Part shown: in pieces, positions 31,148 to 44,738 of the stretch | How positions within the stretch are numbered: position 1 is the stretch's first letter | Layout of the letters: every line of letters starts with the position of its first letter | Source of the DNA: Escherichia phage vB_EcoM_EC001 | Reading direction: 5' to 3' (one strand) | Sequence record: MN445185.1 | Length of the DNA: 64,000 bases | Made by a program: the position numbers and the translations under genes | The notes under the pieces: generated by a model | The model's database searches: none | Told to the model about the DNA's origin: nothing | What the model saw: the letters and a program-made list of their open reading frames with translations, nothing else

Positions 31148-31183
31148 TCAAAAAGAACTCAGACAGATATTATCTATCCGAGA
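31148..31183 (+). promoter_or_regulatory. conserved promoter-like element (ATATTATC variant)
   Basis: TCAAAAAGAACTCAGACAGATATTATCTATCCGAG in a divergent intergenic region; shares AAAAAGAACT with 62806 copy. Confidence 0.4.
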
Positions 31184-31209
31184 CAACATCTCATAATAGG
31201 ATAACACCT

Positions 31210-31740
31210 ATGCTTTTTAAATGGCTTTCAACACTCCTGCGTCGTAAGGCTGTAGAAGCTCGCAGACGCTCTTTGGAGGCTGAGTTTCATAAGAATACCC
31301 ATAACACCCTGCACAGAGTGATGGTGGGCTTAGAACTCATTACAGAGCCTCTGGAATATAATGGGAAAGAATACCTTCCTTTTTCATTACGTGGACAACT
31401 CGAATTACGTATTCGAGATTTTGACACGTTGGTGGAGCGATTGGAATTCTTCATTTCTGAGTATAACCGTGTATCCAGTAGCAACATTCCCAATCAACGT
31501 TGGTTAGAGTTGCCTGAGGCAATCGATAGAAAAGGAGAGAGTTCAGAACCACGATGGCTTGATCATTATTTCGGTGCATCCGATCCTGAAGTCGCGCGCG
31601 ATAAACTGCGCACAGTCTTCGCTATGTTAGAACTGTATCAGCGTGCATTTGATAAACAAACACCCGAACAGGATACGCTGTTTAATCAAACCGCACATAT
31701 CTTCCGCGAGTTAGAAGTGATAGTGGAACACTATCTCTAA
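31210..31740 (+). CDS. hypothetical protein (176 aa)
   Basis: AGGA SD; preceded by promoter-like motif AAAAAGAACTCAGACAGATATTATC. Confidence 0.6.
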   Translation: MLFKWLSTLLRRKAVEARRRSLEAEFHKNTHNTLHRVMVGLELITEPLEYNGKEYLPFSLRGQLELRIRDFDTLVERLEFFISEYNRVSSSNIPNQRWLELPEAIDRKGESSEPRWLDHYFGASDPEVARDKLRTVFAMLELYQRAFDKQTPEQDTLFNQTAHIFRELEVIVEHYL

Positions 31741-31773
31741 CTTTTAATCTATTCCCTTGTAACAAGGTGATGT

Positions 31774-32652
31774 ATGGATGATGAGAAAAAGCCGCCGCTG
31801 AATAGCACACGCGAGCAAATTTGGCACGGTACGCCACCGGCGTCAGATTCCAGCTACCCGTTAAGGAAAGCTTATTGGAATCTGGTTAAGTTGATGGGTA
31901 TTAGCGACGGGATATGGAAAGACCTTATCCGTCAACATGTCAACGACCCGGAGTATCTGAAACAGTTTCGTGACAGCAAACTGACCACGATGACCGACCG
32001 CGTTAACCGGCTGAACACCTCACTTACGGGTGGTTCGGTACGTAACCTGACAGTCGATTTTACGTGGAAACGTTTCATCGAGGGATTAGTTATCCTGGAG
32101 ATGCAAACGCTAACAGTCACCCTGCTGACTAAGCGGGGAAGCTTTGACACGAAGTGTTTTGTATTCGACAGTACGTTTGTGCGTGAGGACTTCATTAAGA
32201 ACTTACGTAATGAGAACAGGAAGAAGCGTAAAGAGCGTTTCGAGCATCCCGCATCTTACGACGTTAACGAGTATGTCGCGAACATCGACCACACTATCGA
32301 ACATGTGATGAAGCACATTCTCCTGCGTTTAATCTACAAAGTTATTCGTGGGTATAAAATCGATGGTGATAAACTGGAACGGTGGACGACGAACTACGTC
32401 AACAACCCTAAGTTGTGCCCAGGCACATCATCCAAACGTGGGGACAGACGAAACAACATGAAACAGGCGATGCGTCACACCGAGGCAATCACCTGGCGTT
32501 GGTTTCTAATAATCTTACAAGCGCTGGACGTACGTGAGTTCGAAATCACTTTCAAAGTTCGCCATCGTAGTGGTAGAGAATATGAGGTCAGCGACAACGT
32601 TCCGTTAGCGACGTATAGATTCTGGAGTTCCAATGAAACTGAACAACCTTGA
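31774..32652 (+). CDS. hypothetical protein (292 aa)
   Basis: AAGGTG SD partly inside a small hairpin (CCTTGT-AA-CAAGG). Confidence 0.6.
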   Translation: MDDEKKPPLNSTREQIWHGTPPASDSSYPLRKAYWNLVKLMGISDGIWKDLIRQHVNDPEYLKQFRDSKLTTMTDRVNRLNTSLTGGSVRNLTVDFTWKRFIEGLVILEMQTLTVTLLTKRGSFDTKCFVFDSTFVREDFIKNLRNENRKKRKERFEHPASYDVNEYVANIDHTIEHVMKHILLRLIYKVIRGYKIDGDKLERWTTNYVNNPKLCPGTSSKRGDRRNNMKQAMRHTEAITWRWFLIILQALDVREFEITFKVRHRSGREYEVSDNVPLATYRFWSSNETEQP

Positions 32653-33907
32653 TGGGATTACCAACCAGATAAGCAACACAACGGGCGCAATAGAGAACAA
32701 AGTTAACGATGTTCAAAACCGTGTCCAGTCAACGATTGGTAATGCCGAGCGCGGTATTGAAAGTGCTCAAAATTTGTACAATAACGTAACCGCCAAAGCA
32801 GGGGAAACTTTCGACAAGATCTCCAACATTGGCAACACGATAAGTGAGAAATTTGGTAACGTGTTCGGGGGTGGCGACCAAGTCACGGTAGGTGGTAAAA
32901 AGGCAGCAGGTTCAGCGGCTTCCGGAGTATCGCCGCCACAACGTGTGCCTACTTTTGCTTCCAACACGAAAGAAGCGCTGCCAGTTATCGATCCACAGAA
33001 GCGCGATGTGTCCGAACCCTTTCAGAAGGTAAACCAGGAAGGGAAAACTGCACTGAGCTATCTCTCACCGGGCGGCGCAGGTAGTCTGTTAAGTAAGGGA
33101 TGGGATACACTGACTGATCTTCGCGATAGCGCTTTAAGCGCGGTCGGGACAGATTATGCGTCAGTGAAAGCTCGCCTGGAGTCCACGATGAACATCGCGG
33201 GACAGCTTGCCAAACTGCCGGGTGAGGTACAGCGTGAAATCGGTAACTACGTCGATATGGCCAATAGCGCCAAGTGGCAAGTCACCGCACTGATTGACGA
33301 TGTTACGCACACGTTTGATAGCTTTAAGGACCTGGACGACTTCTTGTCTATCGACGGGATCATTGATAGCTTTACGGGCGGGAGTGGGAATTTCTCCTCG
33401 CTGGATATCAACACCTCGTCTGCATTGATATACGGTATGTCCACAAAGCTCAATCAATACGGTCTGCCGAATCGCATCGATCCGATGATTCAGGCTATCA
33501 CCGATCCTATTGCACAACAAGCGTTGTACGGCGAACTGATGATACAGGCTGCGGCGTCGGGTAATCTCAATTCTGTTGAGTATTACTTGCCTAAACTACA
33601 GCCAGGCCAAGGTGCTGAGATTGCAGATACTGTTATTCAGAATCTTCTGATGAACCTTAACGTTGAGCCGGGGGTGGGTTACAGCACCTACGGTCAGCGA
33701 CTGCTGACGTTGTTTAAAGCGCTTAATCCAAACTGGGATATCTCTAAAACGAATCCTGGAATGGTTGAGCTTAAGCTTTACACATACGCCAACAGTAATG
33801 CGATTCAAGCACTCCTGACCACCGAGAAACGTCCGTACGTTATCGCCGGTGGTAGTGTCCAATATCAGTCTGCCAGTACGCTGGTGCAGAGCTATTTCGC
33901 CTTGTAA
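32633..33907 (+). CDS. hypothetical protein (424 aa), Ser/Thr/Gly/Asn-rich (virion-protein-like composition)
   Basis: 20-nt overlap with upstream gene; GGAG SD; composition only, no motif. Confidence 0.65.
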   Translation: MKLNNLDGITNQISNTTGAIENKVNDVQNRVQSTIGNAERGIESAQNLYNNVTAKAGETFDKISNIGNTISEKFGNVFGGGDQVTVGGKKAAGSAASGVSPPQRVPTFASNTKEALPVIDPQKRDVSEPFQKVNQEGKTALSYLSPGGAGSLLSKGWDTLTDLRDSALSAVGTDYASVKARLESTMNIAGQLAKLPGEVQREIGNYVDMANSAKWQVTALIDDVTHTFDSFKDLDDFLSIDGIIDSFTGGSGNFSSLDINTSSALIYGMSTKLNQYGLPNRIDPMIQAITDPIAQQALYGELMIQAAASGNLNSVEYYLPKLQPGQGAEIADTVIQNLLMNLNVEPGVGYSTYGQRLLTLFKALNPNWDISKTNPGMVELKLYTYANSNAIQALLTTEKRPYVIAGGSVQYQSASTLVQSYFAL

Positions 33908-33916
33908 GGTACCTCT

Positions 33917-34768
33917 ATGTCGAAAGATGAAGGTAAGTTTTTGCGTAGTGCGTTGGAACGTCTACGTGTCGATGGTGCATCGGTGGATGCTTTGGCGGCT
34001 GCTTTTGGGTTTACGTTGCCCGCCTCGGTAGAAGCCACATATCCTGTTTTACGTCCCATCCTACCACCAGAAGAAAAGGAAGCCTTTGTACGCTATTTAC
34101 TGCGTATGGGTTACCAGAGTACCTTGGTGGATATCACGCCGTCTACAGACGGTCTGAATCACTTCAACATCTATTCGCAGGGGCGAACTGAGATAGGTCG
34201 GATGGCGAGTAACTTCTATGCTCGCCCTGGTGAGTATTTTGTTACCCCCCACGGACCTTTCCGGACGCTCGAAGGTTATTATCATTACCTGCGTATTCTG
34301 GATTACTTAATGCGTGAAATTGATAACCGCACTTTGGTGATGGAATTTGATATCATGCGACAGGCAGTGAACACCTGGCCTGATATTGAGAAGTTGCGTG
34401 CACTAGATGGCACCGACTGTATCCGGCTAGGTCGTAATCTGAAAGCGGAAATCTACGGAGGAACCAGTTATAAGCCCGGTTCATTTACCCCGGTTACAGA
34501 AAGCCGTTTTATCCATGCGCTGGTAAATAAACTCTTTATACTGTCGGTCGACGGGACATCGTTAGGTAATGTATTTGCAGAGATTCTGCGAGCACGTATC
34601 CCGCTTAAGCATTATTACATGATGCAAGGGCGTAAGATATTCCCAGCACACTGGGACTGGCTACCAAATCTGATTGAGATGATAGCTGAACATATCGATC
34701 CTGAGGACAGTACGTTTGATCGAACCGAACTTTTGAAGAAACTAGGAATCGATGATGGGACTATTTGA
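33917..34768 (+). CDS. hypothetical protein (283 aa)
   Basis: AAGG SD. Confidence 0.65.
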   Translation: MSKDEGKFLRSALERLRVDGASVDALAAAFGFTLPASVEATYPVLRPILPPEEKEAFVRYLLRMGYQSTLVDITPSTDGLNHFNIYSQGRTEIGRMASNFYARPGEYFVTPHGPFRTLEGYYHYLRILDYLMREIDNRTLVMEFDIMRQAVNTWPDIEKLRALDGTDCIRLGRNLKAEIYGGTSYKPGSFTPVTESRFIHALVNKLFILSVDGTSLGNVFAEILRARIPLKHYYMMQGRKIFPAHWDWLPNLIEMIAEHIDPEDSTFDRTELLKKLGIDDGTI

Positions 34769-35414
34769 TATTCTCAAAAACTTAGACGAGCAGCAGGAAA
34801 AAGAAGTCATTACTGTTGCGCGTGAGTCCATCTCTACGGAGAAGGAACGTGAGTATTGCATGTGGGTTAAGCCCACTGAAGAAGGTTGGCAATGGCTGTT
34901 TGGTCAGACAGGCGAAACCTTCCTGGATGTCATTATGCCGGTCCTTAACGGCAAACGTCGTGTGCGGTTGTCCACCGATAAAACTGCGGTCTTAACGTTA
35001 AAACGACAAGCATCTGATGGTCGTATCGAAGAGAACTCGGATATCGGGTTTGCCTCGGGTCTGACCTTCTACGAAGATGGCAATCTTGCACATCTCGTGC
35101 GTCGTATCAAACTCGAACCAGGTGAACTGGCAGAGCAAGGTGCGAAGCATTGGGATATCGACTTGTTCTTTAAACTGGCAGGTCACCCAGTTATCGAATC
35201 GCAGGCAGGTTTCGAAGACCTTGTCAACGAACTGCGCGACTCCACGACATTCGGCGAGTGGGTAAAAGTCGAACTGGAAGTTGAGCGATTTGAGCTGACG
35301 TCTATCAAGGACGTATTGCCGTTTGCAGTAGAAGACGCTATTCCAGGCAACCCGTCGGATGCGGAGTCCCAGTTAGTTATTTCGAACTACTGGGATAATG
35401 AAACCCGCATCTAA
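34752..35414 (+). CDS. hypothetical protein (220 aa)
   Basis: 17-nt overlap with upstream gene; terminator follows. Confidence 0.6.
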   Translation: MMGLFDILKNLDEQQEKEVITVARESISTEKEREYCMWVKPTEEGWQWLFGQTGETFLDVIMPVLNGKRRVRLSTDKTAVLTLKRQASDGRIEENSDIGFASGLTFYEDGNLAHLVRRIKLEPGELAEQGAKHWDIDLFFKLAGHPVIESQAGFEDLVNELRDSTTFGEWVKVELEVERFELTSIKDVLPFAVEDAIPGNPSDAESQLVISNYWDNETRI

Positions 35415-35420
35415 GTCGTG

Positions 35421-35455
35421 CCCTCTCCTTCGGGAGAGGGTATCTTTATTTTTTA
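35421..35455 (+). terminator. intrinsic terminator
   Basis: CCCTCTCC-ttcg-GGAGAGGG then TATCTTTATTTTTT. Confidence 0.8.
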
Positions 35456-35472
35456 TCTTAAGGAGTATGTAA

Positions 35473-35835
35473 ATGCAAATCGGCTTCTTCTTTAATCGTC
35501 ACGGAATCGTGTTTGTTTGTGGTGTTCCGGATAGTGACGGGAGACGTGTACGCACGTTAGAACTCGACGAAACATCTATGGTCGAGTGGAAAGAGAAACT
35601 TGCTCCCTTCGCAGAAGGTAAGTTTCAACTGCTGCAGCTCTACACGCAAGCTGCATCACCACGCGTTGCTTTCTCCCGACTTGGAGACGGCGAAGACACC
35701 ACACATCTGGTTATCTTCAGTGGGCAGCCTGGTCGTGTATTGAGCGAATTATTGATGGGATTCAATCCGCCTAGCAAGCCCAGGATGAATACGTACAATG
35801 TGCACGACAGTAGCCAAATTCTTATTCTTCGATAA
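35473..35835 (+). CDS. hypothetical protein (120 aa)
   Basis: TTAAGGAG SD. Confidence 0.55.
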   Translation: MQIGFFFNRHGIVFVCGVPDSDGRRVRTLELDETSMVEWKEKLAPFAEGKFQLLQLYTQAASPRVAFSRLGDGEDTTHLVIFSGQPGRVLSELLMGFNPPSKPRMNTYNVHDSSQILILR

Positions 35836-35883
35836 TTTACGGCCACGGCTGTACGTATGTAAAAGACCTCAAGGAGAACTATA

Positions 35884-36303
35884 ATGAACAATATCGCGTT
35901 TGAAAAAGGCGTTGGGTTACTTCTGAACAACACCATCGTCGCTGGCACTAATAACGCTAACTGGGAAGCGTTAGCGCAACGTCTCAAAGACAAGCCTGTG
36001 AAGATTGTGGTAACGAGCGAGCTGCCGTTAAACGGCACGATGGCGGACTGTGGTCCAATGTTTGCGGCGTTTAACATCGACTATGATTGCGGTTCCGCTT
36101 TCTTACAAAACGCCGCGTTACGTAGCCGTCTGTACAGCTGGCGTTTGCTGGGTCCGGTAAGTAAAGCCGCAGGTCAAATGGTTAACCAGGGCACACCGAT
36201 GTCGGGTGTAGAAGACCAGACTATCGCCGTTGTCGTTTCTCGCGCAACCGGCCAGCTTAACTTTGCAATCTGCTACGCGTATCAGGAGGAAGAGTATGCT
36301 TAG
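35884..36303 (+). CDS. hypothetical protein (139 aa)
   Basis: CAAGGAGA SD. Confidence 0.55.
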   Translation: MNNIAFEKGVGLLLNNTIVAGTNNANWEALAQRLKDKPVKIVVTSELPLNGTMADCGPMFAAFNIDYDCGSAFLQNAALRSRLYSWRLLGPVSKAAGQMVNQGTPMSGVEDQTIAVVVSRATGQLNFAICYAYQEEEYA

Positions 36304-37156
36304 TATTATTCAGCAGACTCAGGCGGTTGATGATTGGTACCGGCAAGCGAAGATTTACCAATACGGGACACGCGAGCAGCAGCTAGCCAAGTTCTATCGC
36401 ACATTAGGCGACGTCGCTGAAGGTGTGCAGAAGATGGACAACTTGAAAGTGGCGGCGGCCATGGGTCGCTCTCTTTGGGCGTTCGTTGGTCTGTTGCACT
36501 TCGGCAAGCACACGAACGTGGGAGATTTCGTTATTCCACTGGATGCAGCTATAAAAGACCGCACCACGGGAAACACCAAAGAGTTCCGTCTTCATAACCT
36601 TTTTGTTGTTGCCACCGAAGTGGTTGGACTCATATTGCAAGATGAGCACGAGCCCCACAGCTACGTTACCGAGCTGCATAGTTTGGCGCGACAATACCGA
36701 ATGTTGGCGCGTATCTGCGGCCTGGAATTCGGCCGTGTAATATACAACGGACATCGTGTGCTAATCAACACGAAAGGTGAAATGAACGGCATCGGGTTGT
36801 TTGTTCCCGCGTCTGATGATTTTACTGGCGATAAATTGCCTGGTTCTAGACAGATGTCTGGGCCAGCCATCTGTCTGATGTTCCAGACTGTCCTGGACAG
36901 TTGTGTCGCTACGCACCTTGCGCCCTATTGCCACCGGCCGTTTAAACGCGACGAGTTGCCGACAATCAATGCTGCACTCGCAACTACGTTAAACGAACTG
37001 CTGGACAAATATGTTCGTGACTCAGTGCGCTGGAATCGTATCCTGTTCGAACGTGTACCTGAAATAACCGCAGCCTACACAGATGGCGGTGTGAATGTGG
37101 TGATGAATGATGATCTACTTTACTTATTTGAAAGCTTAAAGAGGGATAGTATCTAA
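36296..37156 (+). CDS. hypothetical protein (286 aa)
   Basis: Start moved from track ORF 36230 to ATG 36296 (CAGGAGGA SD); stop overlaps thyA start. Confidence 0.6.
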
Positions 37157-38187
37157 TGAAGCAATACCTTGAAACGATGCAGAATATTCTGGATGAAGGG
37201 CATGTTAAAGGCGACCGTACTGGAACAGGGACGCTCTCCGTCTTTGGTCGCCAAATGCGTTTTGATTTGCGCAAAGGTTTCCCGCTAGTCACGACTAAAA
37301 AACTCCACCTGCGTTCTATTATTCACGAACTGCTGTGGTTCCTTAGTGGCGATACCAACACCAAATATCTGGAAGATAACGGCGTTACCATTTGGCGGGA
37401 GTGGCAAGATGAAAATGGGAACCTTGGCCCCCTGTATGGGGAACAGTGGAGACGTTGGAAAGATGTGAAACTGGTGCCTAAGAAAAATGCAGCTTTACTC
37501 GAGAAACTGCAAGATGCAGGATACGTGGATTATGGCGACGCGGACGACGGTTCACAAATGTTCGATGCGCGTGTACTTCTGAAAGAGCACGACCAAATCT
37601 CTAAGGTGATTGACCAACTGCGTAACGATCCTGACAGTCGCCGTATTATTGTCAGCGCATGGAATGTGGGTGAGTTGGATCAAATGGCGTTAGCTCCGTG
37701 TCATGCGTTCTTTCAGTTCTACACTCGTGAGCTGTCTATCGACGAGCGGGTGAATTGGGCAGAAGATAACGATAACGAACTCTGGTCTGATTATGTCCAC
37801 AGCACGTACGTACCCGCACCTAAGCGATTAGAGTGGTTGGATAAAGCCAACGTGCCAACCCGTATGTTGTCTTGTCAGCTGTATGCACGTTCCCAAGACT
37901 TCTTCCTGGGAACACCGTTCAACATCGCGTCTTACGCATTACTCGTGCACATGGTAGCTCAACAAGTTAACATGGTGCCAGGCGATTTCGTTTGGAGCGG
38001 CGGTGACGTGCATCTGTACTCCAACCATCTGGAGCAGGCCAAGCTGCAGCTGACGCGTGAACCTTTACCTTTGCCGAAACTGGTCATCAAACGTAAACCG
38101 GAATCTATCTTCGGTTATAAGTTCGATGATTTTGAGATCCAGGATTACGTATCACACGACCCAATTAAAGCGCCTGTCGCTATCTAA
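37156..38187 (+). CDS. thyA: thymidylate synthase (343 aa) with two insertions relative to E. coli ThyA
   Basis: Near-identical to E. coli ThyA in conserved blocks ([39 protein letters not shown] with catalytic Cys, [19 protein letters not shown]-terminal …IKAPVAI); two ~35-40 aa insertions. Confidence 0.95.
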
Positions 38188-38199
38188 ATAGGAGCGTTT

Positions 38200-38736
38200 A
38201 TGGTTGACAACGTCGTTCCATTCAAACCTAAAGTGGTGGTTGCTACGGACGAACCGCCGTTTATTCCTGTCAATGGACAGAAGATCATCGAGTTTCCAGA
38301 CGAGCATCGTGGGCAATTGCACGTTCCACAACCGGACGGGACGATGAAAGCTATCGGTTTCCCGATAGCTGAACAAGAATGGTGGACGCTTCTGGCCATC
38401 CAGATGATGTCGCGTGGTCTGGGTGTGTCTACGGAACCTGTCGTTCGCATTAATACCGACCCGTATATCCACGAACAAGGCAGTTGGATGGAACGACGTC
38501 GGACAATGGAGATGCAGATTAGCAAAGAAACGCTTTTGCAAATCGCCGAGTCCACGCCCTTTATCCTGACCTCATCTTTTAACGGGGATATGGATGAAGA
38601 CCTCTACATGCACCTTTCAGGCTTAGCAGCTGAACACCGCATTGCAGAAGAAGAGCCTATCTATACCGAAGCGATGATTATCCATCCGACTGGCTTAGAA
38701 GGTGATACCTTTAAACTGATTTGGGTGGAGCTATGA
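38200..38736 (+). CDS. hypothetical protein (178 aa)
   Basis: AGGAG SD. Confidence 0.6.
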   Translation: MVDNVVPFKPKVVVATDEPPFIPVNGQKIIEFPDEHRGQLHVPQPDGTMKAIGFPIAEQEWWTLLAIQMMSRGLGVSTEPVVRINTDPYIHEQGSWMERRRTMEMQISKETLLQIAESTPFILTSSFNGDMDEDLYMHLSGLAAEHRIAEEEPIYTEAMIIHPTGLEGDTFKLIWVEL

Positions 38737-38984
38737 CTGACCGACTCAGTAAAACAATTCGACTACCACAACAGCGTAATGTTCGCAAAGGCGATGTTTT
38801 CACGGCGGAAGAATGGGTTGCATTAAAGGCCCTGTTCCCGGACGAAACCGATTCACATGTCGTCCAAATGGCATTGAAAGAGTTTGCAAAGAACGCTCCT
38901 GAAATGCTGCTGCGTAAGAAAGAAGAAGAACTGAATATGCTCCGTAACAGCGTAGACGTTCTCTTTAAAACAATGGAGAAATAA
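38733..38984 (+). CDS. hypothetical protein (83 aa)
   Basis: Start moved from track ORF 38721 (TTG) to ATG 38733 overlapping upstream stop; GGTGGAG SD. Confidence 0.5.
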   Translation: MTDRLSKTIRLPQQRNVRKGDVFTAEEWVALKALFPDETDSHVVQMALKEFAKNAPEMLLRKKEEELNMLRNSVDVLFKTMEK

Positions 38985-38985
38985 G

Positions 38986-39753
38986 ATGATGAAACTCTTT
39001 GCGTTCTCCGATGAATTCTACACAGTGGAATTCGACGACTACGAATACGGGTTATTAGGGGCCGTCGACATGGAGGACGCTAAACGGCAGCTTCCTACTA
39101 GCGAAATAGAAATCATTGAGATTGGGGAAACTAATCTTAGTGAGATTTTGATGCTGGGGCGGCGACCACGACCTGCGGAACCTGAGCAGGAAAGAGAGCA
39201 AGCGCAAGCGATTTGTCTGGTTTATGAGCCGATAGACCCTGCAGCGATAGCGAAGGTAGTCGATACGTTACGGCCACAGATTGGCGTCGCGATTGAAAAT
39301 TATCGCTGGGCTCGTTTCTCGGGCGACACGCCGATATTTTCGAATAAGCACTGGTTGTTATGTATCAACGACGACACGATAATGGTACCGTTAACAGGGG
39401 AGAAGAATTTTGAAGATAACTTCGTCCCTGGCGAAGAGTCTGTTATCTTCGAGTATAGCCATGTCATCGGAAAGCCGAGCTTCTACCAAGTTCTGATTGA
39501 TGTCTTGACTCACGTCGGTCGAACCATCGAATACCACTACTGGGCACGCCAGGCGCGTTCTAAATGGTTCTCGTTGACGTACGTCGAAGGTTGGGAACGT
39601 GTTGTTGAAAAGATTGACGGGCGCTATGAGCAGATATGGTTCCTGAACCCGGCATTCCGTGAAGAATTACCCGCATGGGTAAAAGAAGAGGCGAGCAAGC
39701 TGACGGTTGGCTTTACTAAGCAGGGCGCGCCGTATATGGTTAACTACAAATAA
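38986..39753 (+). CDS. hypothetical protein (255 aa)
   Basis: ATG 1 nt after upstream stop; GGAG SD. Confidence 0.6.
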   Translation: MMKLFAFSDEFYTVEFDDYEYGLLGAVDMEDAKRQLPTSEIEIIEIGETNLSEILMLGRRPRPAEPEQEREQAQAICLVYEPIDPAAIAKVVDTLRPQIGVAIENYRWARFSGDTPIFSNKHWLLCINDDTIMVPLTGEKNFEDNFVPGEESVIFEYSHVIGKPSFYQVLIDVLTHVGRTIEYHYWARQARSKWFSLTYVEGWERVVEKIDGRYEQIWFLNPAFREELPAWVKEEASKLTVGFTKQGAPYMVNYK

Positions 39754-39764
39754 GGTGAAAACAG

Positions 39765-40244
39765 ATGTCTATAACTCGGATCGATTATCGTGCCGTGGTA
39801 AAAGAACTGTCCAAAGGTCTTATCGAACTGGACTCCGATGAAGCCCGTAGCTGTGGCTTTTTACCGCATATTGCACTGAGTGAGTTCCGCACTATCCGCT
39901 ATGGAGCTGGTCGTCAGAAAGGCGTTACAACACACGCTGTTGATATGTCAGCAAAGTTCCACGGCAGCGTTCTGTATCTGGTTCACAACGAAGCATTACG
40001 GAGCGAAGTGGTGGAGAAATTCCATGAAAAAGCCGCTGGGAACGGTTGGTTGACCGTACACTGTAACTACTTGCCCGAGGGTTGGAAACGCGCGACGGGT
40101 GCTGGTATATCCGGCTACGAGAAATTCGGCTTGGTTATTGTCGACGAAGCGGGTTTCTTCTTCAACAAGTTCAGTTACGATAAAATCTATCGCAGTCTGG
40201 TCGACGTAGTAACGCCAGACGTTGTGATACACCTGATTAATTAA
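39765..40244 (+). CDS. hypothetical protein, possible P-loop NTPase/nucleotide kinase (159 aa)
   Basis: AAGGTG SD; Walker-B-like LVIVDEAGFFF (resembles thymidine-kinase [VI]DE[AG]QFF) and a loose P-loop GAGRQKGVTT; tentative. Confidence 0.55.
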   Translation: MSITRIDYRAVVKELSKGLIELDSDEARSCGFLPHIALSEFRTIRYGAGRQKGVTTHAVDMSAKFHGSVLYLVHNEALRSEVVEKFHEKAAGNGWLTVHCNYLPEGWKRATGAGISGYEKFGLVIVDEAGFFFNKFSYDKIYRSLVDVVTPDVVIHLIN

Positions 40245-40256
40245 GTAGAGGAAAAT

Positions 40257-40445
40257 ATGGCTGGAGAACTCGGTCGTGGGCAAGCCACAACGTTCATGTA
40301 TCGTGATGGGTTAGGTGCGGATGTAAACATGTCTCCGGATGACGAGATGGTTATCCCTGGACTTGACCCGGACGCAGGTGTGGAAGGTGGCGTCGACCCG
40401 TCGAAAGACGACGACAACTGCACCGGTGGTGCGTGCAAGATTTAA
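40257..40445 (+). CDS. small acidic protein (62 aa)
   Basis: GAGGAAAA SD; strong terminator follows. Confidence 0.5.
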   Translation: MAGELGRGQATTFMYRDGLGADVNMSPDDEMVIPGLDPDAGVEGGVDPSKDDDNCTGGACKI

Positions 40446-40455
40446 AATACGTATT

Positions 40456-40489
40456 AGGGTGTCCATATGGACACCCTACTTATTTTTTT
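40456..40489 (+). terminator. intrinsic terminator
   Basis: AGGGTGTCC-atat-GGACACCCT then ACTTATTTTTTT. Confidence 0.8.
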
Positions 40490-40507
40490 GTTTAAGGAGC
40501 TATCAAA

Positions 40508-41449
40508 ATGGGCGAACGTTTCATTATCCAGATTCCGTATAACGTTATTGTTGAACCTAACCAGTACCTGGCACAGATTAATGAGCTTCTGGCTGGATTC
40601 TGCCAACGTCAGTTTGTTAAACCGTGGTCCTTTGAGAAACTGTACACCCTGTGCGTGAACAGTGAAACCGGTCACACTTACGTCGAAGGTAAAGTCTTCA
40701 CAGGCGACCAGCGTTTGGAAATAAATGATTTCGAAATGCCGTGGACGTTGGAAGGTGTCGAGTATCGTGGTACGGTTGATCGTCCGCGTTACGTACCTTT
40801 GTACACCATCCCACAATGTATTACTAACGTTATGGGTTGGTCTAAAGCGCGTGGTATTCTGGATAACGGCGTCTGGTATAGCCAAGCCACCAAACTCTAC
40901 GAAGAAGACGGTGAAGCGGCAACCGGTATCAGTAAAAACAAACGCCGTTACATCATGGACGGTATCGGTGATGCTCTGGTCGTGCTGGTTAACTTGATGG
41001 AACTCATTAAGTTTGACTCAACCGATATCACCACATACGTCAACGACGCACGTTCAAAGAAACCACACGCCGGGAACAGTCATTACCTGTTCCACAAAAT
41101 GCGTTTCCATCTTACTTGTGCAGTTGATTATATCTGGGATCAGGCAGGCATCGACTCAGCTAAGCAACTCGAATATAAACACTTCGAGAACAGCGACGCG
41201 GTAATGATCGAATGTCACTTCGCGCAGATGGTCGAATACGCCAATGCGCTGGCTAATGCGTACGATATGACTCTGGAACAGTGCTTCTCCTTGGCGTGGG
41301 ATGAAATCAAAGACCGTAAGGGTTTCCTGAATGCGGACGGTATCTTCGTTAAAGAAGCAGACATGACTGCTGCTGAAATCGAAGTAAACGGTTCCCTTAC
41401 TGTAAAAGATGAGGCGTTTACCGATGGCGAAGAAACTGTTCACGGTTGA
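40508..41449 (+). CDS. hypothetical protein, possible MazG-like NTP pyrophosphohydrolase domain (313 aa)
   Basis: TTAAGGAG SD; segment MDGIGDALVVLVNLMELIKFD resembles the all-alpha MazG helix pattern; tentative. Confidence 0.6.
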   Translation: MGERFIIQIPYNVIVEPNQYLAQINELLAGFCQRQFVKPWSFEKLYTLCVNSETGHTYVEGKVFTGDQRLEINDFEMPWTLEGVEYRGTVDRPRYVPLYTIPQCITNVMGWSKARGILDNGVWYSQATKLYEEDGEAATGISKNKRRYIMDGIGDALVVLVNLMELIKFDSTDITTYVNDARSKKPHAGNSHYLFHKMRFHLTCAVDYIWDQAGIDSAKQLEYKHFENSDAVMIECHFAQMVEYANALANAYDMTLEQCFSLAWDEIKDRKGFLNADGIFVKEADMTAAEIEVNGSLTVKDEAFTDGEETVHG

Positions 41450-41846
41450 TTACGATGAATACGCTGATCGTTTACTGGTCAACAATATCGTCTGGGAAGA
41501 CCACGGTCTAATGCCATGGCATCTGAAATTCCTAGCGGAGCGTTCAGAACAATGCGGTGGTTTGGAGTTCGTACTTACCGACACACCAATTCCGGTACCT
41601 CACATTGCGCCGGTAGAAAATTTGTACTTCTTCGATGCTAATGTGAAGTTATTACAGCAGGTACTCTATACGCATGATTGGCGTGGCGGTTGTCAGTTCC
41701 CAGAGAACGTTTTAAAGCTCTCTGAACGCTTCGGCACCGACATTGCGTACTGTCAAACGTTCCCAAAAGACTTGGGACGAAACAGCGTGGTGCTGTGGTA
41801 TTACCCTCCGGTAGAAGATATCGTAAAAGTGATTATCGAACGCTAA
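41424..41846 (+). CDS. hypothetical protein (140 aa)
   Basis: Start moved from track ORF 41409 to ATG 41424 (GAGGCG SD); ends at a bidirectional terminator. Confidence 0.55.
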   Translation: MAKKLFTVDYDEYADRLLVNNIVWEDHGLMPWHLKFLAERSEQCGGLEFVLTDTPIPVPHIAPVENLYFFDANVKLLQQVLYTHDWRGGCQFPENVLKLSERFGTDIAYCQTFPKDLGRNSVVLWYYPPVEDIVKVIIER

Positions 41847-41860
41847 AAAATAAAAGCAAA

Positions 41861-41900
41861 CGAGTACCCCGTTAGGGGTACTCGCATTACTTATTTTTTT
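41861..41900. terminator. bidirectional intrinsic terminator between convergent genes
   Basis: CGAGTACCCC-gtta-GGGGTACTCG; T-run downstream, AAAAAATAAAAGC upstream. Confidence 0.8.
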
Positions 41901-41902
41901 TG

Positions 41903-42454
41903 TTACGCTTGAGCCATGTCGGAAATGTCATAAACCAGACCATTCAACTCAGTAACGGTAATCAGTTTACTGATATCGACACCATCGCTCGGAACTTCGG
42001 TCAAATAAACCTCAACCGTACCTGTCCACGCCAGCGACTTTCCATTGAAACGCAGATTGTGTTTCGTGGAGGAAGTCATTGATTCTGTCGCGTAAATCTC
42101 GGTTGCGTCGATTAACCAATTGTATTTGGTTCGCAGCAAGGGAACAAGATCGGCAGCAGTCGACACGCCGGTGCCATCGACAGACAACACGACGTTCTCA
42201 AACAAATGAGCTACGTCCAATCGACGATAAGTAAGACCCATCTTACCGAACGTACCCTTCTCAATGATACCAGAAACATCAAGGTTGGTGTTCAGTCTGG
42301 TGTATTGCTCTGGGTCAGGATCGGCTGCGGTGATGTGTGCCGGGTTACCGAACGACAATTTATCGATGGTCACGCCCTTACCAGTCAGTCCAGGATTCTG
42401 AGACATGATGAGATCGTAAACCAACTCTTTTGCGGTTTTTCCAAATAAACTCAT
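41903..42454 (-). CDS. hypothetical protein (183 aa), possibly virion-associated
   Basis: Last gene of a minus-strand three-gene block; GAGGTAG SD; ends at the bidirectional terminator. Confidence 0.6.
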   Translation of the reverse strand: MSLFGKTAKELVYDLIMSQNPGLTGKGVTIDKLSFGNPAHITAADPDPEQYTRLNTNLDVSGIIEKGTFGKMGLTYRRLDVAHLFENVVLSVDGTGVSTAADLVPLLRTKYNWLIDATEIYATESMTSSTKHNLRFNGKSLAWTGTVEVYLTEVPSDGVDISKLITVTELNGLVYDISDMAQA

Positions 42455-42476
42455 AATGCGCTACCTCTGTGGTGTA

Positions 42477-44738
42477 CTATCGCGCTTGTGGTAGGAAAAT
42501 GTTCGCGATTTGTCGTGCTGGTATGATATCTAACGCGGCGTTGACGATGCTGCCCTGTGACCAGGCACTTGCCCAGTTCTGCGCCCAGATAGACGCGTTG
42601 ATTTTAGCCTGCGCGATGCCGTTGGTACGCTCGTAAAGCGTGGCAGCGCCCAACACAGACATAAATTCACTGAACTTGTTATCATCATCAAACACACCAA
42701 TATCAGTTACAATCGGCATGTACATAACACGCGACAGGTCACGAATAGTTACCTGTATATCACACGACAACGGCAGACCGTCAGCACGCCAACCTAAACC
42801 ACCTGTACCGAACTGGAGACTCAGGTTAGTTACCATGGCGTTACGCATGGAATAACGACCGCGAGAATAGCACTCCAGATAGAACGGGTGTGTAAACGAT
42901 TGTTTACCGGTTGCTAACGGACAAACTGCCGCTAACCAGAACGACAACGGGACAATCAGATCCTGGAACACATCTAAGTCGTTACCCGACCAACAGCGAA
43001 GGGGAATGCTTAGCGAGATATCGTCACCTGAGGTGTCTGAGGAGTCCCACACTTCCGGGAAGTCAATCACTGACGAGTTGTACAGCGACATAATCCCTGA
43101 TAAATGCAAGAAATCGAGTGCGCCTGTAAAGGCGGACTTCAACCCAGTAATGAGACCATCGACTGCGTCGAAACCAGTCTTACCACCAGAGAGGTTTACT
43201 TCCAAAGAACGTGCTTTCTGTGTGGCGGAGTTAACCGTGCCAGAGATTTCAGGTTCTTTGGTGGTGTTGGAGAACGAACGCCCTACGGTATCACGTCCAT
43301 CAACACGCCAAGTAATCCACTGCGAACCATTGCGTATCTCCGAAGCGATGTTCGAAGTTAACCCATCCATAGCGCCTTCTAAAATATCGATATAGTCTTT
43401 GAAGACGCTACCGACAGATTCTTTCTGGCCTTGGTCCATCCAGTTTTCAATCTTCCCAATGTCGAGATTATTCTCATCCATTGAGTTTGCTTCGGTCTGA
43501 CTTTTAGCAACCTGAGCCTGGTTCTTTTCAACCTGTGCCATACGCTCGGCAAGCTTTTTACGTTGCGCATCACCTTCGTTTTCGAAGTTTTCAGCCTTAC
43601 CCCCTTGTGACTGAGCATCCTGAATGCTGCCGTTCATCCCTGCTACCAGTTCGTCTTCTTTGTTGTCGACGTTTTCAAAACCAGCATCGTACCCTTTACC
43701 GGCTTTGGCTACGTATTCAAGGTTACGTAAAGAAACCTCGTACTGCGCAGCTTTCTCCAAATGGGTTGTTGAGTACGTCGCTTCCAGATAGAAGTTTCGC
43801 AAACGACGAGCCATGTCCTCTTCGTTACTCGACTCTTTACGAATTTTATCGATGGTTTTCGCCTGGTAGTTGGCTAATGTTTGGTAGCGGTTAATCATTC
43901 GATAGATATCGAACTCACCATCAGCTGTCCAGATTTCTGGCAGCATGGAGTACCACTCTTTGCGGTCGCCGTTGTACTTATTAGCAGTACCGCCTTTCTC
44001 AGACCCATCTACAGCATTAGCAAGCTGGAAAGTCCCTAACACACCCGTTGGCACCAATCGGCGATAAACTAACTGGGTGTTGACCATATTCTGCACAGCG
44101 CGCAGATACAAGTGCATTGTCGGTTTCACGTAGTAGTAGCGAGAAGTCTGCTTGTTCAGCACCATCTTCAACATACGTGGTGTAATTAGAATAACCGCAA
44201 AGGCAACCGTACCTACTGCGGCCCATATTGCTGCGGCGGCAACATACGTCCCCATCGCACGTAACATACCTGGGTAGTCACCTGTGCGTGCCAGATACGC
44301 TAGGTTGGAATCGTACATATTCGCGAAGAATGCAGCTACCCCGATATATCGAGGTTTACCGAAACGACAATGAAGATAAAAACTGTTTTGGTTAATAGCT
44401 TCGTAATAGAAAGTCCCTAGACGATAGGAACCACGTTGGTCTTGACCTTTAACGTACTTTGAGTACGAGCCACGACCTGCATCGGGTTGTGCAAAAGCAC
44501 CTGTTGAACTCGGATCAGCAAACATCGTAAACTGCGGCGGCGCATTTAACGCTTGCGAACCACCCATCGTGGTATCTTCAAACGAGAGCATCGCGTTAGA
44601 GTAACGACGCAAACCCAGGAAGCGCTCATCGCGCTGTGCGGTTGTACCGCCAAACAGGCCGGTTACCCATCCTGAATCTTTTAGTTGTCTTGCTTCCACG
44701 TAAAACCTCTCTGTAAGATGATTAGGGGGTGTTGCCAC
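42477..44738 (-). CDS. hypothetical protein (753 aa; GTG start, uncertain), possibly virion-associated
   Basis: Long minus ORF directly downstream of the giant gene; alternative GTG at 44699 with better-spaced GAGAGG SD; hydrophobic stretch near aa 150-185. Confidence 0.75.
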   Translation of the reverse strand: MATPPNHLTERFYVEARQLKDSGWVTGLFGGTTAQRDERFLGLRRYSNAMLSFEDTTMGGSQALNAPPQFTMFADPSSTGAFAQPDAGRGSYSKYVKGQDQRGSYRLGTFYYEAINQNSFYLHCRFGKPRYIGVAAFFANMYDSNLAYLARTGDYPGMLRAMGTYVAAAAIWAAVGTVAFAVILITPRMLKMVLNKQTSRYYYVKPTMHLYLRAVQNMVNTQLVYRRLVPTGVLGTFQLANAVDGSEKGGTANKYNGDRKEWYSMLPEIWTADGEFDIYRMINRYQTLANYQAKTIDKIRKESSNEEDMARRLRNFYLEATYSTTHLEKAAQYEVSLRNLEYVAKAGKGYDAGFENVDNKEDELVAGMNGSIQDAQSQGGKAENFENEGDAQRKKLAERMAQVEKNQAQVAKSQTEANSMDENNLDIGKIENWMDQGQKESVGSVFKDYIDILEGAMDGLTSNIASEIRNGSQWITWRVDGRDTVGRSFSNTTKEPEISGTVNSATQKARSLEVNLSGGKTGFDAVDGLITGLKSAFTGALDFLHLSGIMSLYNSSVIDFPEVWDSSDTSGDDISLSIPLRCWSGNDLDVFQDLIVPLSFWLAAVCPLATGKQSFTHPFYLECYSRGRYSMRNAMVTNLSLQFGTGGLGWRADGLPLSCDIQVTIRDLSRVMYMPIVTDIGVFDDDNKFSEFMSVLGAATLYERTNGIAQAKINASIWAQNWASAWSQGSIVNAALDIIPARQIANIFLPQAR

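Follow-up and report, generated by a model that had tools for sequence, protein, structure and literature searches.

What are the two long segments that interrupt the conserved core of the thymidylate synthase (TS) of Escherichia phage vB_EcoM_EC001, and how did they come to reside there? The gene in question, thyA, lies in a stretch of 64,000 nucleotides (nt) from sequence record MN445185.1, which is the DNA analysed here and is called the window below. Thymidylate synthase is among the most conserved and best-studied enzymes, and an insertion in the beta-hairpin at its subunit interface is present in no solved structure returned by our structure search. The identity of the gene is already known, in that every related GenBank record annotates it as thymidylate synthase. 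What goes beyond an earlier note on this DNA, which had been made from the sequence alone, is that the inserts occur throughout the family, exist as alternative alleles and pass from one phage to another.

In the account that we judge to be reasonably probable, this Seoulvirus ThyA is intact and its two inserts, named ins1 and ins2, are old surface modules that are folded, maintained by selection and exchanged by recombination, and that may serve as protein-recognition surfaces.

Architecture and predicted activity of the phage enzyme

The predicted product of thyA matches the thymidylate synthase family PF00303 over the entire profile (positions 1-266 of 266, amino acids (aa) 2-343; E=1.3e-111, 372.5 bits against a cut-off of 24.3) and also matches phrog_160 (1.5e-116). 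Its best phmmer match in the PDB is ThyA of Escherichia coli (3.7e-122), and the earlier identification as a ThyA-type enzyme thus holds. This match is split into three stretches, in which residues 1-102, 145-191 and 237-343 of the phage protein correspond to E. coli residues 1-102, 109-155 and 158-264, respectively (Table 1). Between them lie ins1, which follows GEQWRRW and places about 42 aa where E. coli has a six-residue loop (site 1), and ins2, which follows FQFYTR(E) and places about 45 aa where E. coli has a two-residue turn (site 2). The net gain over the E. coli enzyme is 79 aa (343 versus 264), in agreement with the earlier description of two in-frame insertions at these positions that add some 80 residues.

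The residues expected of a working enzyme are retained. The catalytic pair C182-H183 (PCH motif; E. coli C146-H147) occupies invariant alignment columns, with the Cys codon TGT at 37699-37701, and all four phosphate-binding arginines, R21, R162, R163 and R245 (E. coli R21, R126', R127' and R166), are invariant as well. In the E. coli enzyme, N177 provides specificity for dUMP and is replaced by Asp in dCMP hydroxymethylases, and E58, W80, W83, Y94, D169, H207 and Y209 take part in folate binding and hydride transfer. Residue N256 of the window protein corresponds to N177 and thus to the position that discriminates dUMP from dCMP. Residues E58, W80, Y94, D248, N256, H286 and Y288 are invariant both in an alignment of phage ThyAs with the E. 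coli protein and in one that includes T4-like, human and Lactobacillus casei TS, whereas W83 is invariant in the former and loses this status once the T4-like and human enzymes are included. The MAFFT alignments comprised 18-53 homologues.

A structural model made with AlphaFold2 (AF2) from a 54-sequence alignment has a mean predicted local distance difference test (pLDDT) score of 88.7. Foldseek aligns this model with E. coli TS crystal structures at an E value of 3e-39 and a TM score of 0.93-0.94 when normalised to the target, and of only 0.72 when normalised to the query, which implies that the inserts are covered by none of the solved TS structures returned in the search. From the conserved residues and the predicted fold, we conclude that the window gene should encode an intact and catalytically working enzyme that converts dUMP to dTMP.

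Both inserts are distant in sequence from the conserved catalytic residues, and both are folded in the AF2 model. Strands at residues 101-108, 124-130 and 137-145 and a helix at 112-120 are predicted for ins1 (pLDDT 77-94), and helices at 195-205, 207-215 and 221-230 for ins2 (pLDDT 67-80). The alignment places ins1, whose classes share a GY motif, in the loop that holds the 8-residue 'eukaryotic insert' of human TS (PMC5929524). The site of ins2 is the hairpin between the strand that starts at the catalytic Cys (FQFYTR) and the interface strand LSCQLYxR; LSCQLYQR is among the octapeptides designed against the monomer-monomer interface of human TS, and crystal structures show binding there (PMC8041318). 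When the isolated window inserts were compared with Pfam, no match was obtained even at E<=10, and the ins2 of phage phiKZ in the same scan gave one sub-threshold match, to DUF1869.

The inserts might instead be artefacts, that is, unspliced introns, frameshift errors or products of misalignment, the last of which the earlier note had named as what would refute it. T4-type td genes carry group I introns, and some SPFM assemblies split this gene into 10-12 BLAST pieces, suggesting indel errors in those records. However, the reading frame in the window is continuous, the alignment gaps recur across the MAFFT alignments, the same architecture is present in more than 100 independent sequences, selection is detected at the codon level (see below), the predicted structure is folded, and no Rfam family is found in 36000-39000. 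We regard the chance that the inserts are artefactual as close to nil. A group I intron in thyA was also considered as a candidate and was ruled out by the continuous open reading frame (ORF) and by the lack of any Rfam match at E<=1 in the same interval.

Table 1. Coordinates of thyA, of its segments and of neighbouring features in the window.
Feature	Position	Strand	Description
thyA coding sequence	37156..38187	+	ThyA-type thymidylate synthase; 343 aa plus stop, single uninterrupted ORF
Core block 1, aa 1-102	37156..37461	+	75% identical to E. coli aa 1-102; DRTGTG phosphate-binding loop (R21), E58, W80, W83, Y94
ins1, aa 103-144	37462..37587	+	phmmer alignment gap; beta-alpha-beta-beta module
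Core block 2, aa 145-191	37588..37728	+	81% identical to E. coli aa 109-155; R162/R163 (E. coli R126/R127), Cys182-His183
ins2, aa 192-236	37729..37863	+	phmmer alignment gap; three-helix module, class A; anchors E197 R198 ... P234 x R236
Core block 3, aa 237-343	37864..38184	+	73% identical to E. coli aa 158-264; R245, S246, D248, N256, H286, Y288, C-terminal KAPVAI
Recombination tract with ins2 class A	37744..37884	+	gene nt 589-729; nearly base for base as in Erwinia phage Caitlin (Machinavirus)
Mosaic patch, codons 86-97	37413-37446		block difference from JN03
Mosaic patch, codons 325-343	38128-38187		closest to phage 1252
MazG-like gene, diverged	36296..37156	+	upstream of and overlapping the thyA start; phrog_10269 at 1.4e-77, weak MazG match
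MazG-type pyrophosphohydrolase	40508-41449	+	phrog_7855, 8e-146; 2.3 kb downstream of thyA

The hairpin insert is the hallmark of a jumbo-phage ThyA clade

Searches beyond the window reveal that ins2 is the hallmark of a large clade of jumbo-phage ThyA proteins in which surface loops have grown into small folded modules. The clade is defined here by a helical insert of at least 35 aa between F(Q)FY and LSCQ that opens with a nearby E-R pair and closes with P-x-R/K. The window protein has such an insert at aa 192-236, with E197 R198 near the start and P234 T R236 at the end, and the segment scores 55.5 bits against a hidden Markov model (HMM) of ins2. The four anchors E197, R198, P234 and R236 are the only invariant positions across 21 ins2 classes.

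The 120 best homologues, drawn from 5.8 billion proteins, are 336-406 aa long, save for one 274-aa fragment. The long contigs behind them measure 220-245 kb, which is the size of jumbo phages, and many of these proteins are wrongly labelled as belonging to Salmonella, Shigella or E. coli. The same hairpin carries ins2 in phiKZ gp235 (488 aa), in the TS of Goslar (339 aa), Klebsiella phage FBKp24 (463 aa) and Salmonella phage SA002 (383 aa), and in Erwinia and Cronobacter jumbo phages. In addition, a BFVD model of the 201phi2-1 TS (457 aa) covers the whole query structure with a query-normalised TM score of 0.90. Because phiKZ gp235 and the Goslar enzyme share the insert sites and the 201phi2-1 enzyme matches structurally, the insert-bearing gene appears to be old within jumbo phages.

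A profile that spans core block 2, ins2 and core block 3 retrieved 714 proteins at E<=1e-10 from 1.84 billion cluster representatives. The best 150 of these (50%-identity clusters) all match across the whole profile, and the hairpin holds 35-78 aa in 87 of the 87 members of this set that could be parsed. Three of the four contigs that were looked up had enough flanking sequence, and these are phage-like, with runs of small ORFs lacking Pfam matches and a primase. A profile of ins2 alone found nothing at E<=1 among the 5.8 billion proteins, being too short for a database that large.

Some members, namely P0121 (300 aa), the protein of Erwinia phage Stratton (P0124, 305 aa) and P0125 (318 aa), carry ins2 together with an E. 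coli-like site 1. Since such ins2-only forms exist, ins2 can be viewed as the constant feature and ins1 as optional, and loss of ins2 was seen in no clade member examined. In our alignments, the hairpin insert is absent from the non-jumbo-phage enzymes (E. coli, human, L. casei and T4-like Td) and from the TS of Asteriusvirus EJP2.

The last of these is a 350-kb Escherichia jumbo phage whose ThyA (L012:301-1233) lacks ins2 and bears an ins1-like insert at site 1 (EDVVILPG...GYNLV...). The score of this segment against an ins1 HMM was reached by 31 of 1000 shuffled sequences, compared with a marginal 4 of 1000 for the site-1 segment of phiKZ.

Insert classes, selection and cassette exchange

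When grouped at 50% identity, the inserts of the 120 closest homologues fall into 18 classes for ins1, plus an insert-less host-like state, and 20 classes for ins2, with only ~22-38% identity between classes. Even enzymes with cores 87-100% identical to that of the window carry at least four ins2 classes and at least three ins1 classes. Within a class, the inserts evolve much as the enzyme does. Comparison of the window with Cronobacter phage CR5 gives proportions of nonsynonymous (pN) and synonymous (pS) differences of 0.199 and 0.70 for ins2 class A and of 0.171 and 0.77 for the core, and comparison with P0032 gives 0.159 and 0.68 for ins1 and 0.121 and 0.80 for the core. Purifying selection within a class is therefore about as strong on both inserts as on the core, with synonymous sites saturated, which indicates that the inserts are maintained as protein.

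These data bear directly on the alternative that the inserts are functionally neutral loop expansions, with class diversity reflecting drift and ordinary phage mosaicism. Neutrality would be compatible with the low identity between classes outside the four anchors, with the free interchange of classes between otherwise near-identical genes, and with the variable presence among relatives of ins1 and of a further insert at a third loop (site 0, described below); moreover, eukaryotic and L. casei TS enzymes are known to accommodate extra residues at two of the loops concerned (PMC5929524). It is difficult to reconcile with within-class pN values of 0.20 for ins2 (pS 0.70) and 0.16 for ins1 (pS 0.68), set against a pN of 0.12-0.17 for the core, synonymous sites being saturated, with the retention of ins2 in every clade member seen, with the invariance of the anchors, or with the predicted folding of both inserts. 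We consider neutral expansion unlikely.

A sign of exchange is a 141-nt tract that carries ins2 class A (Table 1). The window and Caitlin differ at 2 of the 141 nt in this tract, compared with 302 of 890 aligned nt (34%) outside it (Fisher p = 2e-20). For Salmonella phage JN03, a near-isogenic relative, the pattern is reversed, with 69 differences in 124 nt inside the tract and 56 in 908 outside (p = 8e-39). Class A of ins2 is carried by the window, Lh1B and Caitlin and, more distantly, by CR5, P0048, P0056 and P0078, whereas class B is carried by SPN3US, JN03, phage 1252, SPLA3 and SPLA5c. As judged from such sequence comparisons, ins2 classes have been swapped between phage genomes as cassettes.

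The breakpoints of the tract fall in conserved codons, those of a 13-letter protein stretch at one end and those of (V/I)PxRxLSCQLY at the other. Such an arrangement would result if jumbo phages infecting the same cell recombined by homology and in-frame products were then selected, and in our account insert classes in general move between phage genomes in this way, by homologous recombination in the strongly conserved core codons that flank them. The locus offers an unusually clean natural case in which a domain-sized cassette has been exchanged within the gene of an essential enzyme, the tract having crossed between phages of Erwinia and phages of E. coli or Salmonella hosts. It also provides a natural swap series, with class A (window) and class B (JN03) on a nearly identical background. 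In the searchable literature, neither the clade-wide ER...PxR hairpin module nor its duplication, its conserved classes or the cross-genus tract was found to be described.

Two smaller mosaic patches were observed in the same gene. In the first (codons 86-97), the window differs from JN03 as a block, reading GNLGPLYGE versus GDLGEIYGA. Codons 89 and 92, at which this gene has been listed as 'under positive selection' (PMC6614189), lie inside this block (gene nt 258-291), and recombination may therefore partly explain the published call. In the second (codons 325-343), the DNA is 61-75% identical to Lh1B and SPN3US and ~90% (89-94%) identical to phage 1252.

A further observation concerns SPLA3, in which an HNH endonuclease gene (L004:737-1504; phrog_8790, phrog_374) abuts the start of thyA (L004:1501-2538) and replaces most of the MazG-like gene otherwise found there. 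Codons 37-96 of this thyA fall to 64-86% nt identity with the window. The arrangement looks like co-conversion associated with a homing endonuclease, which may help to explain the mosaicism of the locus.

Module copies at other loops and the possibility of a selfish origin

Some relatives carry an extra insert at site 0, the loop that accommodates the L. casei insert and the 12-aa human insert. An HMM built from ins2 only recognises the site-0 segments of FBKp24 (33.1 bits), SA002 (23.5 bits) and P0078 (20.5 bits), scores that were reached by none of 1000 shuffled sequences in each case; those of P0056 and P0059 score more weakly, at 10.5 and 5.3 bits. A candidate third copy in FBKp24, located directly before the catalytic Cys, scores 10.0 bits (2 of 1000 shuffles), and ins1, used as a negative control, scores -0.6 bits (667 of 1000). 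Comparison of ins2 with the site-0 inserts by hhalign gave a partial match (probability 66%, 22 columns). Because the ins2-only HMM recognises site-0 inserts, the same helical module has been copied to different loops of one enzyme in some lineages. The window ThyA has one copy of the ins2-type module.

Several other unusual architectures were encountered. The ThyAs of FBKp24 (L014:337-1728) and SA002 (L015:511-1662) share an extra SPQEN...G(K/R)P segment directly before the catalytic Cys. In P0207 (579 aa), the ins1 site is occupied by an in-frame segment of ~270 aa that has no Pfam match and includes a stretch rich in Cys and aromatic residues, and P0259 (485 aa) is extended at its C-terminus by a segment that weakly matches a helix-turn-helix.

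Recurrence of a module at one further loop, or perhaps two (FBKp24, SA002, P0078), is what might be expected if the modules were domesticated selfish in-frame insertions, such as degenerate inteins, remnants of homing endonucleases or elements resembling the Rickettsia palindromic elements. The clade is also visited by genuine selfish elements, as complete inteins, with matches to Intein_splicing and LAGLIDADG_3, are inserted precisely at the catalytic Cys in two ins2-bearing proteins, P0215 (796 aa) and P0277 (821 aa), and the HNH gene that adjoins thyA in SPLA3 and the large site-1 insert of P0207 could be cited in the same sense. Against this origin, neither ins1 nor ins2 resembles a Hint, intein or endonuclease family in Pfam, and Rfam finds no intron. 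Neither terminal inverted repeats nor target duplications were found, base composition equals that of the genome, and short repeats occur at chance level. The ins2 HMM finds no other ORF in the window, where a six-frame search returned ins2 alone, with a next-best score of 8.2 bits at the noise ceiling. A tblastn search with ins2 of 50,697 phage records at E<=10 yielded essentially thymidylate synthase genes only, together with one match of E=4 in an unannotated record. A selfish origin is thus, in our estimation, quite improbable.

Two specific forms of this idea were rejected as candidates. Inteins are ruled out by the junctions, as the earlier note had also held on grounds of length: ins1 runs from D103 to KE144 and is followed by H145-D146, and ins2 runs from ELS to PTR and is followed by M, with no C/S/T...HN|C/S/T arrangement. 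A multi-gene mobile element of the Rickettsia type is ruled out by the confinement of the module essentially to thymidylate synthase genes among the phage records searched and in the window, and by the lack of a DNA repeat signature.

Origin of the enzyme core

The earlier note had described the core as almost identical to that of E. coli ThyA and suggested either relatively recent acquisition from an enterobacterial host or strong constraint. The identity proves to be lower than this wording implies, at 192 of 256 positions (75%) in protein and ~70.7% in DNA; across 5,426 complete E. coli genomes, thyA aligns at the latter level in three pieces. When the insert-less core is compared with cellular ThyAs, the best matches reach 72-76% and are scattered over several gammaproteobacterial orders, with hits in Enterobacterales (Mangrovibacter, Cronobacter, Escherichia and Hafnia), in Gilliamella and in the marine genera Corallincola, Aliagarivorans and Thalassolituus. 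Recent host capture is unsupported because cellular matches plateau in this manner, with no outstanding donor. The cores of enterobacterial jumbo phages are 69-83% identical to one another and 68-82% identical to E. coli ThyA, and the phiKZ core is ~57% identical to that of the window and ~55% identical to all of these.

A scenario of recent capture from an enterobacterial host, with the two insertions gained afterwards, could draw on the fact that phage cores are about as close to E. coli ThyA as to one another, and on the wide lead of E. coli ThyA among solved structures (411 bits versus <=334 for other bacteria). It conflicts with the low DNA identity to all E. coli genomes searched, with the plateau shared by Enterobacterales and marine gammaproteobacterial genera, with the saturation of synonymous sites even among phage genes, and with the same insert sites and anchors in phiKZ and the structural match of 201phi2-1 TS to the whole model. 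We regard it as highly improbable. The comparisons indicate instead a gammaproteobacterial-type ThyA under very strong constraint, apparently with no recent capture from the present host, which is the second of the two options previously raised. Host genes may occasionally have converted segments of the core.

Possible roles of the modules

Both modules would be non-catalytic, and protein recognition is our best guess for what they do. One candidate role, by analogy with what has been proposed for the inserts of T4 Td, is the docking of a phage partner in cytoplasmic deoxynucleoside triphosphate (dNTP) synthesis. Because ins2 emerges from the dimer-interface sheet, a second candidate role for this module is control of subunit pairing or formation of an extended or specific dimer interface. 

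SPN3US is among the phages of the Chimalliviridae that have been shown experimentally to form a nucleus (PMC13282480), and nucleus formation by phiKZ, 201phi2-1 and Goslar is likewise taken from the literature. The TMS protein of PhiPA3 fused to green fluorescent protein is kept out of the phage nucleus (PMC9067925), which implies that the TS of nucleus-forming phages works in the cytoplasm. When phiKZ gp235 is knocked down, plaquing is weakly affected (PMC12571901). If the modules are indeed recognition surfaces, they would point to an interaction, so far overlooked, of a central metabolic enzyme in jumbo phages that form a nucleus and must organise their nucleotide supply outside it.

More speculatively, ins2, and ins1 with it, may be a recognition surface that is kept polymorphic by conflict or by partner specificity. 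The idea, which we nevertheless hold to be doubtful, is suggested by the many ancient, conserved classes, by their reassortment among phage genera and by the several copies that a single enzyme sometimes bears. The variable binder may be a host immune sensor or inhibitor, a factor of a competing phage, or a cognate phage partner that organises cytoplasmic dTMP synthesis around the phage nucleus. In a related and equally doubtful reading, ins2 may set the specificity of subunit pairing and so keep the phage enzyme from dimerising with the host ThyA, to which it is 75% identical. Our literature search did not find phage TS as a trigger of defence.

Several points weigh against the account of the inserts as selected recognition modules. 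The extreme divergence of the classes and their free exchange could mean that constraint acts only on the anchors and on general foldability. Confidence in the monomer model is moderate for ins2 (pLDDT 67-80), and in an AF2 prediction of a tethered homodimer (two copies, 30-aa Gly-Ser linker, 10-row alignment; mean pLDDT 50, predicted TM score 0.41) ins2 could not be placed relative to the second subunit. A partner gene that co-varies with insert class was not found, and the sole neighbouring polymorphism tested, the allele of the upstream MazG-like gene, is unlinked. Lastly, of the E. coli, human and L. casei TS reference sequences, that of E. coli was verified.

Genomic neighbourhood

The thyA gene and its surroundings share ~97% DNA identity with Seoulvirus genomes, among them SPN3US, JN03 and Escherichia phage vB_EcoM_Lh1B, and the window belongs to this group of jumbo phages, which resemble SPN3US and form a nucleus. 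Positions 31156-44187 of the window run parallel to Lh1B, the coordinates differing by exactly 160,000 nt and zero indels occurring over 13 kb, and identity to Lh1B forms a patchwork of 84% to 100% per 300-nt bin. Within thyA, 37 of the 50 differences from Lh1B are at third codon positions, as natural divergence predicts. No Pfam match to chimallin was obtained among the large ORFs of the window.

The ATG of thyA at 37156 overlaps by one base the TAA stop of the upstream ORF, which encodes the diverged MazG-like protein listed in Table 1. This protein is 100% identical in aa sequence to its counterpart in JN03, 98% identical to that of Lh1B and 38% identical to SPN3US_0228, and blastn of the window against SPN3US gives no alignment over 36361-37157. 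By sequence comparison, the gene is thus a whole-gene allelic replacement among genomes that are ~97% identical in DNA. A link between this allele and the ins2 class was considered and rejected, as in JN03 an upstream gene of the window type stands beside an ins2 of class B. A second, clearer MazG-type gene lies downstream and is distantly related to the first (phrog_10269 match, 9e-8), such that thyA is flanked by two MazG paralogues.

Comparison with known systems

One of the closest known systems, E. coli ThyA (264 aa; PDB 2TSC, 1TYS), shares with the window enzyme its fold, its catalytic and ligand-binding residues, its C-terminus and 75% of 256 core positions. It differs in having no inserts: site 1 holds the six residues PTPDGR, and the chain turns tightly through ADGK at site 2. 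The phiKZ gp235 and Goslar enzymes are members of the insert-bearing clade and share ins2 with ELTxDER...VP(T/K)R anchors at the hairpin and an ins1-type insert at site 1, but phiKZ gp235 has a third insert of ~125 aa at the site-0 loop and a longer ins2. No description of the inserts in the phiKZ, 201phi2-1 or Goslar enzymes was found in the searchable literature.

T4-like Td (286 aa) is likewise a phage-encoded ThyA with lineage-specific surface insertions, and Finer-Moore and colleagues reportedly proposed in 1994 that the inserts of T4 Td mediate contacts in a dNTP-synthesising complex. However, its extra residues are located elsewhere, with none at site 1 or site 2, and its identity to the window protein is ~37%. 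The T4 td gene also has a group I intron, whereas Rfam detects none in the window thyA.

Rickettsia palindromic elements offer an analogy only. These are also short in-frame surface modules that leave the host enzyme functional, with a module type that recurs at several sites, but they are DNA-level repeats present in many unrelated genes.

Cellular TS enzymes with inserts include the human protein (12 aa at 117 and 8 aa at 146) and that of L. casei (50 aa in the small domain). The 8-aa human insert coincides with site 1 and the others coincide with site 0, which implies that these loops tolerate insertions. The human site-1 segment has no sequence relationship to ins1, as its score against the ins1 HMM was reached by 215 of 1000 shuffled sequences. 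Moreover, the human and L. casei inserts are fixed traits of their lineages, whereas those of the window enzyme are exchangeable allelic cassettes.

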